Below are positions 5,656-55,945 of a stretch of DNA of 64,000 bases, piece after piece. Origin of the DNA: an uncultured candidatus Porisulfidus sp. GTDB lineage: Bacteria > Pseudomonadota > Gammaproteobacteria > Poriferisulfidales > Oxydemutatoraceae. The translations under genes were made by a program, and so were the position numbers. Each line of letters opens with the position of its first letter. Position 1 is the stretch's first letter. The notes beneath the pieces were generated by a model. That model was not told the DNA's origin and did no database searches. It saw nothing but the letters and a program-made list of their open reading frames with translations. Location of the stretch: assembly GCA_965199685.1 (NCBI GenBank), contig OZ241323.1, positions 801,940-865,939 on the forward strand, read 5' to 3'.

Positions 5656-5697
5656 CGCGTCGTGCGTCGGCAGGGTGCGTTGCGAAGGTATTGTAAA

Positions 5698-6189
5698 ATG
5701 AACACCATGACGATAAAAAAAGATATCACCATTATTTCCGGCGGACAAACAGGTGTGGATAGGGCAGCTTTGGATGTTGCATTAGAGTTGGGGATATCCT
5801 GTGGCGGCTGGTGTCCTGAGGGACGGCTAGCCGAAGATGGTGCGATTGCTCAACACTACCCGCTAAAAGAACTTGTCGGAGGAGATTATGTTCAACGCAC
5901 TATGCACAATGTGTTGGACAGCGATGCGACCCTGGTTATCTATTTTGATCAATTGGAAGGCGGCACCGAATTAACGGTTGAATTTTGCAATCAAAAAGCC
6001 AAGCCAGTTTTAGTGATAGATGCAAACGCCGTACAGTTTTCATCGGCAGTTGATAAGATGCTAGACTTTACTCGCCGACATCAACTTGAGATTCTGAATA
6101 TCGCCGGACCTCGTGCCAGCAAACAACCCGCTGCTTACGCATATACCAAAGCATTATTGACCGATTATTTGCAAAAACTCCAGCAATAA
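5698..6189 (+). CDS. SLOG-superfamily protein (putative molybdenum-carrier-like, PF12694-type)
   Basis: ISGGQTGVDRAALDVALELGI..GGWCPEGRLAEDG motif block recalled from MoCo-carrier-like proteins; start chosen at MNTMTIKKD. Confidence 0.5.
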   Translation: MNTMTIKKDITIISGGQTGVDRAALDVALELGISCGGWCPEGRLAEDGAIAQHYPLKELVGGDYVQRTMHNVLDSDATLVIYFDQLEGGTELTVEFCNQKAKPVLVIDANAVQFSSAVDKMLDFTRRHQLEILNIAGPRASKQPAAYAYTKALLTDYLQKLQQ

Positions 6190-6209
6190 AAGCAAAAGAT
6201 ATAGCAAAA

Positions 6210-6515
6210 ATGGATTCGATAAAATTATTGCAACGTCTCAAACGCGAACACGATTACTATAATCGTTTTTTCACATTATCACTGGCTGCCGTTATATGCT
6301 TGATTGGACTTGCTTTTTGGTGGGCGGAGATTCCTTTGTTGGATGAATATAAAGTGATTGTCGGTTTGATAATGATTTTTCTGGCGTTTGTTTTTTATAA
6401 TATCCCTTATCTTGTGTATCGCTTGTTGCGCAGACGCTATCGCAATGACGAAGCGGTGAAGCAGTTGATGGGTAAGCGGTGGTATTTCTATAAAAGCAAT
6501 ATCATGAACCGCTAG
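6210..6515 (+). CDS. Hypothetical small membrane protein
   Basis: 101-aa ORF with two predicted TM helices; no recognisable family. Confidence 0.3.
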   Translation: MDSIKLLQRLKREHDYYNRFFTLSLAAVICLIGLAFWWAEIPLLDEYKVIVGLIMIFLAFVFYNIPYLVYRLLRRRYRNDEAVKQLMGKRWYFYKSNIMNR

Positions 6516-7068
6516 GCTTTCTATATGTAGCAACAACAAAGTAGACGAGAAAAATAATTGCTAGCCAGCCGGCGGTTGCCCAGCCATTATAATAATCGTA
6601 CGGCCCGACCAAGAAATGCCAATCTGATTGTTCGTTGAAATAAGATAATTTTTTATCCACCTTGAGCGTTAATATCCATCCGCTGTGTATGCCTATGCAA
6701 GCCCATACATTTGTGGTCTTTAGGCGCACGATACCTAGCAATACACCAGCTAAAAAAAGACTGAGTGCGGTTGAGAAATAGTTGCCGTCCCAATGCATTG
6801 CGATACTGTCGGCAAGTATCACCGAACCATAATACCAAGGTGCATCGGCGGGTAATTCGCTTCCCTTGATGCGTGCAAAATGTATCACTGCGAAGAACAA
6901 GGCAGTCAATAGTATTGCGGATAGCGGTGCTTTATCTTTTAGAAAACCCTCAAACAAAATCCCTCTGAAAAAAGTTTCCTCTATTAAAGAAACCACAAAG
7001 GCGGCAAGCAATAACGATGCCAACTTAACTGCAAAGGCATCCCATGCAAAGTCCGGTGATAGATTCAA
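6502..7068 (-). CDS. CPBP (CAAX protease/Abi) family intramembrane metalloprotease, catalytic part
   Basis: EETFFRG (motif 1, EExxxR) and downstream His-containing TM helices; it starts at TTG and lacks the N-terminal TM helices. Confidence 0.6.
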   Translation of the reverse strand: MNLSPDFAWDAFAVKLASLLLAAFVVSLIEETFFRGILFEGFLKDKAPLSAILLTALFFAVIHFARIKGSELPADAPWYYGSVILADSIAMHWDGNYFSTALSLFLAGVLLGIVRLKTTNVWACIGIHSGWILTLKVDKKLSYFNEQSDWHFLVGPYDYYNGWATAGWLAIIFLVYFVVATYRKPSGS

Positions 7069-7415
7069 ACCCGAAGATCCAACAAATGGAACAACCCGGT
7101 GACAGGCAACATCATCGCTATGCCTACAATGAAACCGTAGAACAATAATCCGCGTCGTGTTTGGTTCCCGTTTACCGACCAGCCTACGTTCTTATGATCT
7201 AGCAAGCCCTTGAACTTGAGTATTGCGACGATGACCAATAAAATTGCCAGCATCGCCAGCCGTTTCCCGAAATTATCGAAATCAATTAGACCATCGATGC
7301 CTAACAATTTATAGAGTGGTTGCGCGACCAAGCTACTGCCTAGGATTGCAAGCAATACGGAAAATAGAAAAAGCAGAAATAAGCGCATCGAGTCGGTTAT
7401 CGTTGGAATAATCAA
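7065..7415 (-). CDS. N-terminal transmembrane segment of the same CPBP protease (split/frameshifted)
   Basis: 116-aa polytopic ORF ending in a TTGA overlap with the downstream CPBP catalytic ORF. Confidence 0.4.
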   Translation of the reverse strand: MIIPTITDSMRLFLLFLFSVLLAILGSSLVAQPLYKLLGIDGLIDFDNFGKRLAMLAILLVIVAILKFKGLLDHKNVGWSVNGNQTRRGLLFYGFIVGIAMMLPVTGLFHLLDLRV

Positions 7416-7440
7416 TTATAATAAGCTATTTTTAAGCGAT

Positions 7441-7523
7441 GCGGAAGTGGCGAAATTGGTAGACGCGCTGGCTTTAGGTGCCAGTGGGATATTCCCTTGA
7501 GAGTTCGAGTCTCTCCTTCCGCA
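7441..7523 (+). tRNA. tRNA-Leu (anticodon UAG), long variable arm
   Basis: Acceptor GCGGAAG/CTTCCGC, anticodon loop TTTAGGT, T-loop GAGTTCGAGTCTCTC. Confidence 0.85.
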
Positions 7524-7565
7524 TAGTTTTAAGGCTATAATAATCGTTCAAAACATACCAGTTTA

Positions 7566-8852
7566 ATGAATTGTAGAATAGAAGAAATAGATACTTTCGG
7601 GCGCAAACTTTATATTGATATCCCAGCGGCGGATTTTAACGAGCGGGTTAACGCAAAGCTCCGCAAACTCTCTACCACCGCCAATATCAAAGGCTTTAGG
7701 CCGGGTAAAGTACCGCTGGAGATAATCAAGCGTTATTACGGAGAGGAGGTAGAAGACGATGCTATTGCTGCCTTAATACGTGAGAACTATACAAGAGCTG
7801 TGGAGCAACATTCTTTTCATACCATGAGCATTCCTTCCTTTGAAGATGTGGAGGTGGATACCGACAAAGGCATTAAATGCACGGCTTATGTAGAAGTGCT
7901 ACCTGATTTGCAGTTAAATACTTATGAGGATATCACGATTGAAAAGCCTTTTTGCGATATTACTGAGGCGGATGTAGATGCTATGGTGGAACGAGTGCGT
8001 AAGAGTAATCCTAAATGGCAGGTCAAAGACGGACCGGCATGCGTTGACGACAGGGTTACTATTGATATGAGCCGAGCAGGAACCGACAAGGAACCAATTT
8101 TTGACGATAAAAGCTATGTCTTAGGTTCAGAGCCATTGGGCAAGTATCTTGATACACAGATTGAAAATATGCGTGCCGGTGAAGAGAAGGAAATTAGTTT
8201 TAAGGAGCACACTAGTGAAGAACCTGTGGACTCGGATAGAGTAGAGCGATATACCGTGCATTTGAAGTTGGTAGAGAAACCAATTTTGCCTGAACTGGAC
8301 GACGATTTTTTCAAAGTGTGCGGCATCAAAGAGGGTGGGTTGGATGCTTTGCGTAGCTCGTTGCTTGAAGGCATGGAGGCGGAAGCGAAAAGAAAAATCT
8401 CGCAATTATATTGCACCAATATAGAAAATGTAATGCTGACTCACGCTAACATAAAAGCACCTCCAGCGATTTTGAAGGAGGAAATTGAAAAAATCAAGAA
8501 GCGCTTGGTTGATGATGGTATGAGTTATTCCGACAGAGGTATATCCGATGAGTTACTCGAAAAAACTGGCAAACGTCAAGTTTGTTTGAATATCCTGTTT
8601 ACTTACATTAATAAAAAAAATAACTTCAAGGCCGATCGTAACGCATGCGAAGCTAAAATTGACCAATTAGCACAAGATTATAAGGAGCCTGAGCGTATAA
8701 GAAGCCACTACCGTAGCAATGCAAATGCCTACCGCCAAATTGAAGATATGGTGGTTCAAGACAAAATCATAGATTATGTAGCCAAAGAAGCAAGAACAAG
8801 CGAGAAAAAATACTCGTTTTACGAGCTTATGGGTATGGAACAAACACAATAG
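7566..8852 (+). CDS. tig: Trigger factor
   Basis: 428 aa; GFRPGKVP motif; co-linear with E. coli Tig. Confidence 0.9.
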   Translation: MNCRIEEIDTFGRKLYIDIPAADFNERVNAKLRKLSTTANIKGFRPGKVPLEIIKRYYGEEVEDDAIAALIRENYTRAVEQHSFHTMSIPSFEDVEVDTDKGIKCTAYVEVLPDLQLNTYEDITIEKPFCDITEADVDAMVERVRKSNPKWQVKDGPACVDDRVTIDMSRAGTDKEPIFDDKSYVLGSEPLGKYLDTQIENMRAGEEKEISFKEHTSEEPVDSDRVERYTVHLKLVEKPILPELDDDFFKVCGIKEGGLDALRSSLLEGMEAEAKRKISQLYCTNIENVMLTHANIKAPPAILKEEIEKIKKRLVDDGMSYSDRGISDELLEKTGKRQVCLNILFTYINKKNNFKADRNACEAKIDQLAQDYKEPERIRSHYRSNANAYRQIEDMVVQDKIIDYVAKEARTSEKKYSFYELMGMEQTQ

Positions 8853-19443: not shown

Positions 19444-19715
19444 ATAAGGGGCTGTTGAAGAGTAGAACCGCCGTTTGTTGCAGTTGCACAAACGGCGTAA
19501 CATCGTGCAGAACCCTTTGCGCTCGCAAAAACGAAATCGTACATTATTCAATTCATGGAAACCACAACTCAGTGGCGCATAGCGGTTGGAATAGTGCAGA
19601 ACGGTACTTTAGGGAGGGCATGTTAGCCCTCCCCTACAGGTGGTTATCATAAATTCAATGGCGCAAGCGGTTGAGTTTTTACAATGACGATACTTTTTCA
19701 ACAACCCCATAAATG
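19444..19715. repeat. Composite MITE-like repeat with a variant hairpin module (gccgtttgttgca..tgcacaaacggc)
   Basis: Contains tagggagggcatgttagccctcccctac and gatactttttcaacaa modules; ORF 19221..19652 judged spurious. Confidence 0.7.
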
Positions 19716-53450: not shown

Positions 53451-53546
53451 GATTTAGTGAAGCGTAATTGTCTTCTAGTAGCCCTGCAAACGCAACATGG
53501 AGTTTAGCTGAGAAATTAAAAGCAAGGCAAATTGTCAAGCCAAAGG

Positions 53547-53559
53547 CTGATATAATCAG
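53547..53559 (+). promoter_or_regulatory. Extended -10 promoter element (TGaTATAAT) embedded in the palindrome CTGATATAATCAG, upstream of the small ORF at 53603
   Basis: TGn-TATAAT; the dyad symmetry suggests an operator-like site. Confidence 0.3.
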
Positions 53560-53602
53560 CTGACTGGTCAATAAAAGAGACGATTCAAATGGAGATAGGG
53601 TT

Positions 53603-53779
53603 ATGCGCTGCTTAGAATGTGGCAAAGAAGTTATACATTTAGACAATGAATATTTGGCACGATGTTGTGGCTTGACGCTACAAGAATACGCACTGCGCCA
53701 TAAATTGCCGTTGGATATACTCGTACCATCTTCACAAATCAATGCCACCGCCGACTTTGTTGTGGAGTCAACACATTGA
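53603..53779 (+). CDS. Small Cys-rich protein (CxxC...CC plus possible HTH), candidate R-M controller-like ORF
   Basis: 58-codon ORF with RBS GGAG 8 nt upstream; ends at a TGA that abuts the A9 tract and the methyltransferase frame. Confidence 0.35.
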   Translation: MRCLECGKEVIHLDNEYLARCCGLTLQEYALRHKLPLDILVPSSQINATADFVVESTH

Positions 53780-54670
53780 AAAAAAAACGCTATATATCAA
53801 GGAAATTCTCTAGATTTAATTCAAGGTGTAGAAAATGAATCCGTCCATTTAATCCTGAGTGATATTCCTTATGGGATTGGCACTGATGAGTGGGATATTC
53901 TCCATGATAATAGTAATTCGGCTTATTTAGGATCAAGCAATTCACAAAAAAAAGCTGGTAATATTTTTGATAAAAGAAGAAAACCGATAAATGGTTGGTG
54001 TAGAGCGGATCGTGAGATACCTAGAAAATATCAGGAATGGTGTTCAACATGGTCTCCCGAATGGTTTAGAGTATTAAAACCGGGAGCTAGTGTTTTCATA
54101 TTTTCTGGCAGAAGGCTTTCACATAGATGTGTTTGTGCTATGGAGGATGCCGGTTTCATTTTTAAGGATGCACTGGCATGGATAAAAACTCAGGCACCTC
54201 ACCGAGCGCAAAGATTAAGCGTGGTTTACTCTAGACGCGGCGATGAAAAATCCTCCCTAGCATGGGATGGATGGAGGATTGGTAACCTGCGTCCGATGTA
54301 TGAACCAATACTATGGTTTACCAAGCCATATAAAATTGGAGGCACAATAGCAGATAATGTATTAAAGCATGATGTCGGCGCATACAACGAAAAAGCATTT
54401 ATGAAATACGTTGATCAGCCTAATAATGTCATTAGTTGTAGTTTAGGAAAGAATGAGTCCGGCTTTCATCCGACTCAAAAATCTATTAGATTAATGCAGA
54501 TACTAATTGAATTGACTACAAAAAAAGATCAACTGGTTCTTGATCCTTTTGCTGGGAGTGGATCAACGTTGATTGCAGCAAAATTACTGGAACGTCAATA
54601 TCTGGGTTTTGAGCTAGATGCGAATTATGTAAACATTTGTAGAGACAGGCTGGTTCCAGATTTGTTTTGA
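53780..54670 (+). CDS. Beta-class DNA methyltransferase lacking an in-frame start codon as sequenced (possible phase-variable or decaying gene)
   Basis: In-frame translation from 53780 gives IYQGNSLDLIQ...SVHLILSDIPYG (motif IV) and a C-terminal DPFAGSGST (motif I); the first in-frame ATG is at 54140, downstream of motif IV. Confidence 0.65.
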   Translation, partial: KKNAIYQGNSLDLIQGVENESVHLILSDIPYGIGTDEWDILHDNSNSAYLGSSNSQKKAGNIFDKRRKPINGWCRADREIPRKYQEWCSTWSPEWFRVLKPGASVFIFSGRRLSHRCVCAMEDAGFIFKDALAWIKTQAPHRAQRLSVVYSRRGDEKSSLAWDGWRIGNLRPMYEPILWFTKPYKIGGTIADNVLKHDVGAYNEKAFMKYVDQPNNVISCSLGKNESGFHPTQKSIRLMQILIELTTKKDQLVLDPFAGSGSTLIAAKLLERQYLGFELDANYVNICRDRLVPDLF

Positions 54671-54673
54671 AAA

Positions 54674-55583
54674 ATGAAACAAATTAGTCAAAAGGCAATT
54701 AAGCGGAGAAAGCACTGGGTTAAGAAAATTGAATCTATTAGCGAAGATTTTAGTTCGGATACGGCTAGAATCCAAGAGGATCTGATGATTGAAATCAAAC
54801 GCGAAGGTATAAGCTCTTTGATTGATCATTTACGACTTTGTGCTGCAATTCCCGAGTCATGTGGCCACAATTCAACCGAAGAAAAATTATACTCCAAGTA
54901 CACGGATATTCTTATATCCGCCAGTTTCTCTCAAATAGGTCTGAAAAGTATAGTACTAGAATCAAGAGGCGACTCTGCAGATATTGAGGTAATTGCAAAT
55001 GTATAGTTTTGTAGCCGATGCAAAGGTCTTTCGTTTAAGCAGAACTGCAAAGAATCAGAAGGATTTCAAGATACAAGCAATGGATAACTGGAAGTTTGGA
55101 AAGCCGTTTGCAATGGTAGTTTGTCCACTTTATCAAATCCCATCAAAAAATAGTCAAATATATCAACAAGCAAGCGCGAGAAATGTTTGCATATTTTCAT
55201 ATTCTCATCTAGCGGTATTGGTATAGTTTGTTGAAGCTTATAGTAAAAACTCAGGAGAGAAATTGCTTTATGAAATCTTTGAAACAGTTAATTCAATGAA
55301 CCCCAGCAAGAGTGCAATTACATACTGGAATTTAATCAATAGAAAAATGTTATCTCATTCCGACCTTATACAAAATATTTGGAAAAAAGAGAAAATTGCA
55401 ACATTAGAAAGCATAAAAATTGCCAAAGTTGACGCATTGACATACTATGCAAAAGAGCGTGCAAAGATTATAAAAATGAGTAGAGATGAAGCGATTTCAA
55501 AGCTACTGGACGTGAGCAAGATAGAGAATCATGTTCAACAGGTAGAAGCTATATCAAACAATAATTTAATGGATTTAACATGA
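54674..55583 (+). pseudogene. Probable restriction endonuclease remnant in three ORF fragments (54674-55006, 54993-55226, 55263-55583)
   Basis: Combined length of about 303 codons immediately downstream of the methyltransferase; frame change near 55000 and an in-frame TAG at 55224; AT-rich. Confidence 0.35.
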
Positions 55584-55667
55584 AAGTATTAGAAGAAAAG
55601 GATATTAAAATTTGAGACTAAAATAGGGGAAGGTCAATATCAAATTGTCGATTGATTTTAATATATG

Positions 55668-55945
55668 GGGCTGTTGAAAAAGTGGTATTCCCCTCCAAAG
55701 GAGGGGAACGTACTAATGCAGATACTTTTTCAACAGTCCCATATTGTGTTCGTTAGAAACAGTAAGTATACCAGAATCAATCGGAGTGACACTGTGCAGA
55801 ACCTCAACAACCACTTCGTCAGATAGAACTGCCGATTGAGCCGGTAAGTCAATCGGCGTGACACTGTGCAGAGCTTCAACATGATTGCTAAACACATGTA
55901 TTACAAAATGCATAGGCCTGCCACCCCTCCAGAGGAAGGGAATTA
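55668..55945. repeat. Composite MITE-like repeat cluster
   Basis: Modules gggctgttgaaaaagt, cccctccaaaggagggg, gccgattgagccggtaagtcaatcggc, gcataggcctgccacccctcc; overlaps the fabI stop codon. Confidence 0.75.

Follow-up and report, generated by a model that had tools for sequence, protein, structure and literature searches.

The window analysed here, a 64,000-nucleotide stretch of an uncultured Candidatus Porisulfidus sp. (contig OZ241323.1, positions 801,940 to 865,939), contains a small restriction-modification (R-M) cassette in which a run of nine adenines (A9) lies on the start of the DNA methyltransferase (methylase) gene. The ancestral length of this run is A8, the additional base puts the TTG start codon out of frame, the partner endonuclease is dead and the methylase frame shows strong purifying selection. 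Because of this selection, the frameshift is very recent, reversible or not real. The explanation favoured, with moderate confidence, is that A9 represents a real and very recent replication slip that has turned off an orphaned methylase, as an incidental event rather than as an evolved high-frequency switch; that the change is real, has arisen by slippage and is non-adaptive is what we infer.

In the proposed course of events, the ancestral methylase would have started at a TTG overlapping the stop codon of a duplicated host gene fragment (TTGA) and continued with Lys-Lys-Asn, the DNA reading TTG followed by A8. The endonuclease would have died first, by a 2-bp deletion and a nonsense codon, so that a loss of methylation would no longer be lethal and an OFF state would be tolerated. 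A +1 replication slip at what would be the main mutational hot spot of the methylase would then have changed A8 to A9, placing the TTG out of frame with a stop after 20 codons and turning the methylase OFF at the DNA level. Such an ON to OFF change would be reversible in principle.

Start site and reading frames of the methylase

The features around the start of the methylase, given in coordinates of the window, are as follows.

53603..53779, + strand: 58-codon open reading frame (ORF), with its TGA stop at 53777-53779
53764..53767, + strand: GGAG Shine-Dalgarno-like motif, read from the sequence, 8 nt 5' of the TTG start
53776..53778, + strand: TTG, the orthologous methylase start codon, overlapping the upstream TGA (TTGA) and out of frame by +1 in the window
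53779..53787, + strand: A9 homopolymer, beginning with the last base of the TGA; +1 derivative of an otherwise conserved A8
53780..54670, + strand: methylase frame of 296 codons plus stop (TGA 54668-54670), matching PF01555
53946..53953, + strand: second A8 tract, inside the methylase (Gln-Lys-Lys), used as an internal control for length changes

The coordinates of the 58-codon ORF, its TGA and the A9 run, read directly, are those given in the first-pass annotation, which had also noted that the methylase frame lacks any ATG, GTG or TTG ahead of its conserved N-terminus. Indeed, the first such codon within 53780-54670 is an ATG at 54140 (codon 121), located 3' of the catalytic SDIPYG. Translation from the TTG in the A9 state yields LKKKRYISRKFSRFNSRCRK*, that is, 20 codons followed by a stop, as had been claimed, and removal of one A brings the TTG in frame to give MKKNAIYQG..., the full-length product predicted for A8 and read as such in seven related loci. 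In the TGA-overlapping codon context that provides its first A, the ancestral A8 is composed of AAA AAA AA within Lys-Lys-Asn (AAA AAA AAC). The placement of the run is thereby that expected of a contingency tract, since A8 puts the TTG in frame while A7 or A9 puts it out. Missed in the earlier annotation was that the 58-codon ORF and the methylase share one reading frame, with only the TGA between them.

The A9 run is the sole homopolymer of nine or more in the 64-kb window, the expectation from a first-order Markov model being 2.6. The run is therefore unremarkable in itself, and the non-random part is its orthologous position at methylase codons 2-4 in all nine loci compared (see below). 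A scan of the cassette for promoters and terminators found promoter-like sites to be no commoner than in shuffled sequences.

The same arrangement bears on the possibility, compatible with a recent slip in the DNA and regarded as rather unlikely, that the methylase is OFF at the DNA level but leaky, through slippage of the RNA polymerase at A9, through a +1 ribosomal slip on the A run or through read-through of the UGA that ends the 58-codon ORF in the same frame. In many bacteria, transcriptional slippage becomes significant once a run of A or T reaches nine, and broken ORFs that it could restore are known at such runs, with Thermus dnaX slipping at ~50% at A9 (PMC1088944). The run in the window has the nine A needed and, by sequence logic, transcripts with one A fewer or two A more (A8 or A11) would restore the TTG frame, giving MKKN... 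or MKKKN..., respectively, while the shared frame of the upstream ORF and the methylase in the A9 state leaves a single UGA to be read through. Leaky expression would furthermore reconcile the strong constraint on the methylase with its apparently broken start. Against this stands the use of A8 by most relatives, so that slippage would not be the normal mode of expression, as well as the organism-dependent efficiency of slippage (PMC1088944).

Methylase conservation and endonuclease loss in related loci

The state of the tract was compared across nine loci, consisting of the window, two Candidatus Porisulfidus metagenome-assembled genomes (MAGs; L001 and L002) obtained from a genome-collection scan, and six loci from sponge-type metagenome assemblies (L039, L040, L041, L042, L043 and L044) obtained from exact-protein look-ups. 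The tract and start codon were found in the following states.

TTG + A8, full-length methylase (MKKNAIYQG...): L001, L002, L039, L041, L042, L043, L044
A7, TTG out of frame in the opposite direction: L040
A9: window

As TTG + A8 with an intact methylase is found in seven of the eight related loci, A8 is the ancestral state, and the A9 of the window, one base longer than this conserved tract, is derived. This includes the nearest relative of the window, L041, which carries A8 at 96.2% nucleotide identity. The first-pass annotation had named orthologues that lack the tract and start with a normal ATG as evidence for a simple pseudogene; the relatives instead all carry the TTG and a tract of A7 or A8. 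The TTG is also the start in the gene calls of L001 (5998), L039 (6001), L041 (400), L042 (352) and L044 (4001). The GGAG motif is kept in the window, L001, L040, L041, L042, L043 and L044, the same position being occupied by TAGAG in L002 and by AAGGA in L039. At the protein level, the 90% identity cluster holds at least 13 distinct full-length sequences of the MKKNAIYQG type versus two truncated ones of 176 aa, those of the window and L040.

The assignment of the enzyme to the beta class made in the earlier annotation agrees with the match to N6_N4_Mtase (PF01555, E=3.6e-42) and with the motif order, SDIPYG (motif IV) being N-terminal at residues ~27-32 and FAGSGST (motif I) lying near the C-terminus. 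From the DxPY-type motif alone, the product is predicted to be N6-methyladenine (m6A) and not N4-methylcytosine (m4C). The methylase of the window shares 98% amino-acid identity with that of L001 and 94% with that of L002, and the ratio of non-synonymous to synonymous substitution rates (omega) is 0.05-0.08 in every pair compared, at synonymous divergences (dS) of up to 0.65. On the branch leading to the window, polarised with outgroups, 15 synonymous and four non-synonymous changes are found, where ~55 non-synonymous changes would be expected under neutrality (omega ~0.07), and the 296 codons contain no other stop or indel. Judged by this branch and by the lack of a second lesion, the frameshift, if real, must be very young, and would occupy at most a few percent of the branch. 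The two alternatives named in the first-pass annotation, a fixed frameshift and a homopolymer sequencing error, both still stand, the former as a very young lesion. The idea of a long-standing, decaying methylase pseudogene, by contrast, is ruled out on the same two grounds: the ORF is disrupted relative to its orthologues by the +1 in the start tract, as in a pseudogene, while neither relaxed selection nor secondary lesions are seen.

The start tract is itself conserved, with A8 in seven of the nine loci at synonymous divergences that reach dS 0.65. Stability of this kind is more easily explained by a hot spot with a low rate of change than by a contingency tract with a high one. The internal A8 is found as A8 in all eight loci that have the tract (it is interrupted in L039), and an A7 tract is constant across all loci, the low-coverage ones included.

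The partner endonuclease, reported as disrupted in the first-pass annotation, is indeed broken into three pieces (54674-55006, 54993-55226 and 55263-55583), each matching PF09518 (E=2e-29, 5e-36 and 2e-16, respectively). A codon-by-codon comparison with L001 identifies a 2-bp deletion at codon 110 (~55001) and, at codon 185 (55224-55226), a nonsense change from CAG to TAG, both away from homopolymers, and the gene is a genuine pseudogene. The intact pair in L001 consists of a methylase of 297 aa (TTG start) and an endonuclease of 303 aa, the latter matching R.HindIII (PDB 2e52) with E=6e-36 and conserving the DAKxFRLSRTAKNQKDFK core. Between the window and L001, omega is 0.15 for the endonuclease and 0.05 for the methylase. 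The endonuclease is found in the following states.

54674..55583, + strand, in the window: HindIII-family endonuclease pseudogene, PF09518 on all three fragments
Intact: L001
Absent: L002, L039
Cut to the first 80 codons: L040, L044
Frameshifted near codon 225: L043
Hit twice: window

On at least four independent occasions, the endonuclease of this HindIII-family system was lost or inactivated, the methylase staying constrained throughout. The deletion, the truncation to 80 codons, the frameshift at codon 225 and the double lesion of the window form a series of transitions from an R-M system to an orphan methylase. The OFF alleles (window and L040) occur only together with a non-functional endonuclease, and the sole locus with an intact endonuclease (L001) is ON, a distribution that is expected if an OFF methylase next to a live endonuclease is lethal.

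Possible consensus error or switching

A modest probability is given to the explanation that A9 is a consensus artefact, in which case the true sequence would be A8, the methylase would be intact and the extra A would be a homopolymer miscall in a long-read metagenome assembly. The products of the window map to a single contig of 2.88 Mb, which is typical of long-read MAGs, and related MAGs of the genus stem from PacBio HiFi/metaMDBG projects. Residual HiFi errors concentrate in homopolymers. The contig that carries the A7 of L040 is named '..._3x_l'. In L044, a different strain found in the same sample and genomic context on a '6x' contig, the tract reads A8, as it does on the three contigs with short-read-style assembler names (L041, L042 and L043). 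The pristine gene body of the methylase also agrees with an error in an otherwise intact gene. On the other hand, the integrity of the genes in the window is otherwise perfect, 82% of it being covered by 51 intact ORFs with lengths of 120 aa or more, and none of the other five 8-nt homopolymers breaks a frame, the four outside the cassette all being in frame within intact ORFs. A census of homopolymer junctions for other frame breaks returned as its only match a normal ATGA gene overlap (24200). An assembly riddled with homopolymer errors is rejected by this census, a single error still being possible. In addition, the second A8 and the A7 tract within the methylase are constant among the loci, low-coverage ones included, and the lesions in the adjoining endonuclease are genuine and lie outside homopolymers, so that the cassette is objectively in decay.

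The first-pass annotation had described the locus as having the architecture of a phase-variable methylase. That part concerning the layout stands, as a one-base change in the tract toggles the TTG and A8 is the intact state, while a working switch is weighed against by the short tract and by the A8 of seven of the nine loci. Genuine phase variation would mean that the tract switches the orphaned methylase ON (A8) and OFF (A7 or A9) at appreciable frequency, creating epigenetic heterogeneity (a phasevarion) in a sponge symbiont, and this is considered improbable. It would be equally doubtful that populations hold A7, A8 and A9 sub-clones differing in genome-wide m6A, in other words that a non-pathogenic symbiont has built a phasevarion around a classical Type IIP methylase, using a tract shorter than usually accepted. 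In its favour, the tract lies at the extreme 5' end where a change of +/-1 toggles expression, three lengths are seen among the nine loci, with departures in two independent lineages and in opposite directions, and both OFF alleles are otherwise intact and strongly constrained. The retention of the methylase as an orphan after repeated loss of the endonuclease is moreover the usual background of regulatory methylases, and the A7 and A8 loci L040 and L044 share one sample and one genomic context.

Against it, L040 and L044 are only 96.7% identical and therefore represent different strains and not a single switching population. From strain to strain, the length of a real contingency tract usually differs widely, while A8 is here kept in seven of nine loci across deep divergence. 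The A8 also has a rationale in coding and initiation, as AAA AAA (Lys-Lys) follows a weak TTG start, so that its conservation has an ordinary explanation in the Lys-Lys-Asn encoded there. In Helicobacter pylori, where methylases gated by homopolymers are known, the switch-prone length is quoted as '>8 bp' (PMC3936762); A8 falls below this length and A9 just reaches it. The start tract is variable in two of nine loci versus none of eight for the internal A8, a difference that is not significant (hand Fisher estimate, p ~0.5) and rests on too few observations to discriminate. Both off-length tracts come from long-read-type assemblies, one of them labelled '3x'. A scan of Joint Genome Institute (JGI) metagenome contigs for the junction, allowing every tract of seven A or more, gave no match, and an exact look-up of the repaired (A8) version of the window allele showed it to be absent, so that there is no same-strain replicate. 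None of the large ORFs in the window is a mismatch-repair gene, these ORFs encoding Lon, a PpiD-like protein, DnaE and transketolase.

Several observations weigh against a real, incidental slip as the cause of A9. Both inactive alleles, in the window and in L040, are off by exactly one base at the start tract and carry no other lesion, a pattern that would also be expected from a true switch. The A9 allele has been found once in public data, with no independent replicate, and may be a +1 consensus error in a homopolymer. Finally, four lineages without a functional endonuclease (L002, L039, L043 and L044) keep their methylase intact under strong selection. An OFF allele should therefore be costly, so that one would sooner expect a transient, reversible or erroneous state than a fixed loss.

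The HindIII-family cassette, its mobility and related systems

By the family tests on its endonuclease and methylase, the system is assigned to the HindIII family of Type IIP R-M systems. It resembles the HindIII system of Haemophilus influenzae Rd (PDB 2E52/3A4K) in combining a PF09518 endonuclease (E=6e-36 for the L001 orthologue) with a beta-class N6_N4 partner. It differs from that system in that the endonuclease of the window is a pseudogene and its methylase is frameshifted at the start, and in being a cassette that is mobile between sites in uncultured, sponge-symbiotic Gammaproteobacteria. The HindIII site AAGCTT occurs five times in the window versus 17.7 expected (0.28), ranking ninth among the 64 palindromic hexamers, many other palindromes being depleted too. 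Some are avoided much more than AAGCTT, such as TTTAAA (1 versus 21 expected), GGCGCC (0 versus 6.5) and GAGCTC (1 versus 7.3), and their avoidance may reflect further restriction systems that the genome has or once had.

Homology between the window and the two related MAGs is limited to 53466-55610, the flanks being unrelated (blastn). Within this region, the core of the cassette (~53756-55610) is minimal, with the methylase followed by the endonuclease and without a mobility gene, and has its own leader of ~20 nt (53756-53775) containing the GGAG. It is preceded by one further feature.

53466..53755, + strand: host-derived segment of ~290 bp, the left copy of a direct repeat in related genomes (blastn and six-way alignment)

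Within this segment lie the 3'-terminal 31 codons of a DNA-deoxyinosine-glycosylase-like gene (53468-53563), then an intergenic stretch, and then ~51 codons from the 5' end of a zinc-ribbon/QueD-like gene. Positions 53467-53755 match L001 at 5688-5977 and again in a second copy at 7989-8277 (blastn), the repeats there flanking the methylase (5998-6891) and the endonuclease (6895-7806), and the corresponding copies in L002 lie at 5687-~5970 and 7032-7311. The full host genes in L001 encode proteins of 175 aa (TIGR04274) and 413 aa (TIGR00039/QueD), and the right repeat copy in both L001 and L002 is the true 5' end of the 413-aa gene. In the window, a single repeat copy together with the methylase and the endonuclease occupies another chromosomal site, flanked by an ABC-transporter ATPase gene and fabI. 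The duplicated host segment shows that the cassette entered the 5' part of a host gene together with a long duplication of its target, and the unrelated site of the window copy shows that the unit has moved. Gene conversion is suggested by species-specific substitutions that the two repeat copies of each genome have in common.

Insertion with long target duplication is a described mode of R-M mobility, recognised by R and M lying inside an insert of <20 kb between repeats of >30 bp (Furuta et al. 2010, Kobayashi laboratory, PMC2853133). The L001 locus has this form, with R and M in an insert below 20 kb, no mobility gene and flanking host-target repeats of ~290 bp. The window differs in having one repeat copy only, at a new site between elements resembling repetitive extragenic palindromes (REP).

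The origin of the segment also changes the status of the 58-codon ORF, which the first-pass annotation had taken as a gene. The ORF is chimeric, consisting of the 5' fragment of the host zinc-ribbon/QueD-like gene and ~7 cassette-derived codons, and it is not conserved as a protein, being frameshifted in L002 (54 aa), without an ATG in L040 and deleted in L039. It is a duplicated fragment of a host gene and not an independent gene. A role as controller or regulator, hinted at by a weak ROS_MUCR match (E=7e-4, below the Pfam cut-off), was rejected for the same reasons, the matching part being the duplicated N-terminus of the 413-aa host protein. Both the promoter of the methylase and the translation upstream of it probably come from the duplicated fragment.

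The 413-aa host gene (L001 8125-9366; L002 7168-8409) combines an N-terminal CxxC...CC zinc-ribbon-like segment with a C-terminal 6-pyruvoyl-tetrahydropterin-synthase/QueD-like domain, an unusual fusion architecture, and adjoins Fae and other genes of the tetrahydromethanopterin (H4MPT) pathway. A third context of the cassette is seen in L040 and L044, where it lies between FTR/GXGXG genes and pheT and is surrounded by numerous tandem and dispersed repeats of ~60-200 bp (L040 2013-3072; L044 3069-3700 and 5771-6230), detected as overlapping blastn matches. The window itself contains a dispersed element resembling REP or miniature inverted-repeat transposable elements (MITE), with the core TACTTTTTCAACAGTCCCA, in 13 copies within 64 kb (0 expected), often as intergenic inverted pairs and with copies bracketing the R-M cassette (202, 5457, 5637, 12639, 19691, 26779, 27000, 44762, 49310, 49443, 53418, 55666 and 55723). 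A related copy in L001 (375-547) is 84% identical to positions 19537-19710 of the window, which suggests kinship between the two genomes. The 19-nt direct repeat that brackets the cassette was considered as an attachment site or target duplication and rejected, as it is this dispersed element, of which the window has 13 copies. Between the dead endonuclease and fabI, the non-coding sequence also holds a 33-nt direct repeat (55777-55809 and 55849-55881, 91% identical at a spacing of 72 nt), and a strong terminator-like hairpin is present at 55687-55709 on the minus strand.

The locus, an orphaned Type II methylase frameshifted in a homopolymer at its start site, can be set beside several known systems. 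With phase-variable methylases such as H. pylori JHP1272/HP1353-54 and the Type III mod phasevarions, it shares a 5' mononucleotide run that gates the methylase by +/-1 and differs in length among relatives. It is unlike them in having 8-9 A, compared with typically at least 10 G/C or many tetranucleotide units, in being mostly of one length in the relatives, and in that the enzyme is a classical Type IIP beta-class methylase. With frameshifts restored by transcriptional slippage at poly(A) runs (Baranov et al. 2005, PMC1088944; endosymbiont cases), it shares a run, here A9, at the point where a change of one nucleotide in the messenger RNA would restore the ORF, and most orthologues have one A fewer; here, by contrast, the run lies at the start codon and not in mid-gene. 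As in orphan methyltransferases derived from degraded R-M systems, the endonuclease has been lost in at least four lineages with the methylase intact at omega 0.05-0.08, the difference being that the orphan of the window itself carries a start-site frameshift.

Single-base homopolymer differences in long-read MAGs should, as a caution, not be taken for phase variation without read support, and phasevarion biology would be extended to a Type IIP enzyme of a symbiont only if heterogeneity of the tract and fractional methylation were true. If the A9 is real, the locus would capture the decay of an R-M system at a precise stage, in which the endonuclease was lost first, the orphan methylase was kept under selection and was then hit at a hot spot. 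This would fit the R-M life-cycle and orphan-methylase models and add to them an example from a sponge symbiont.

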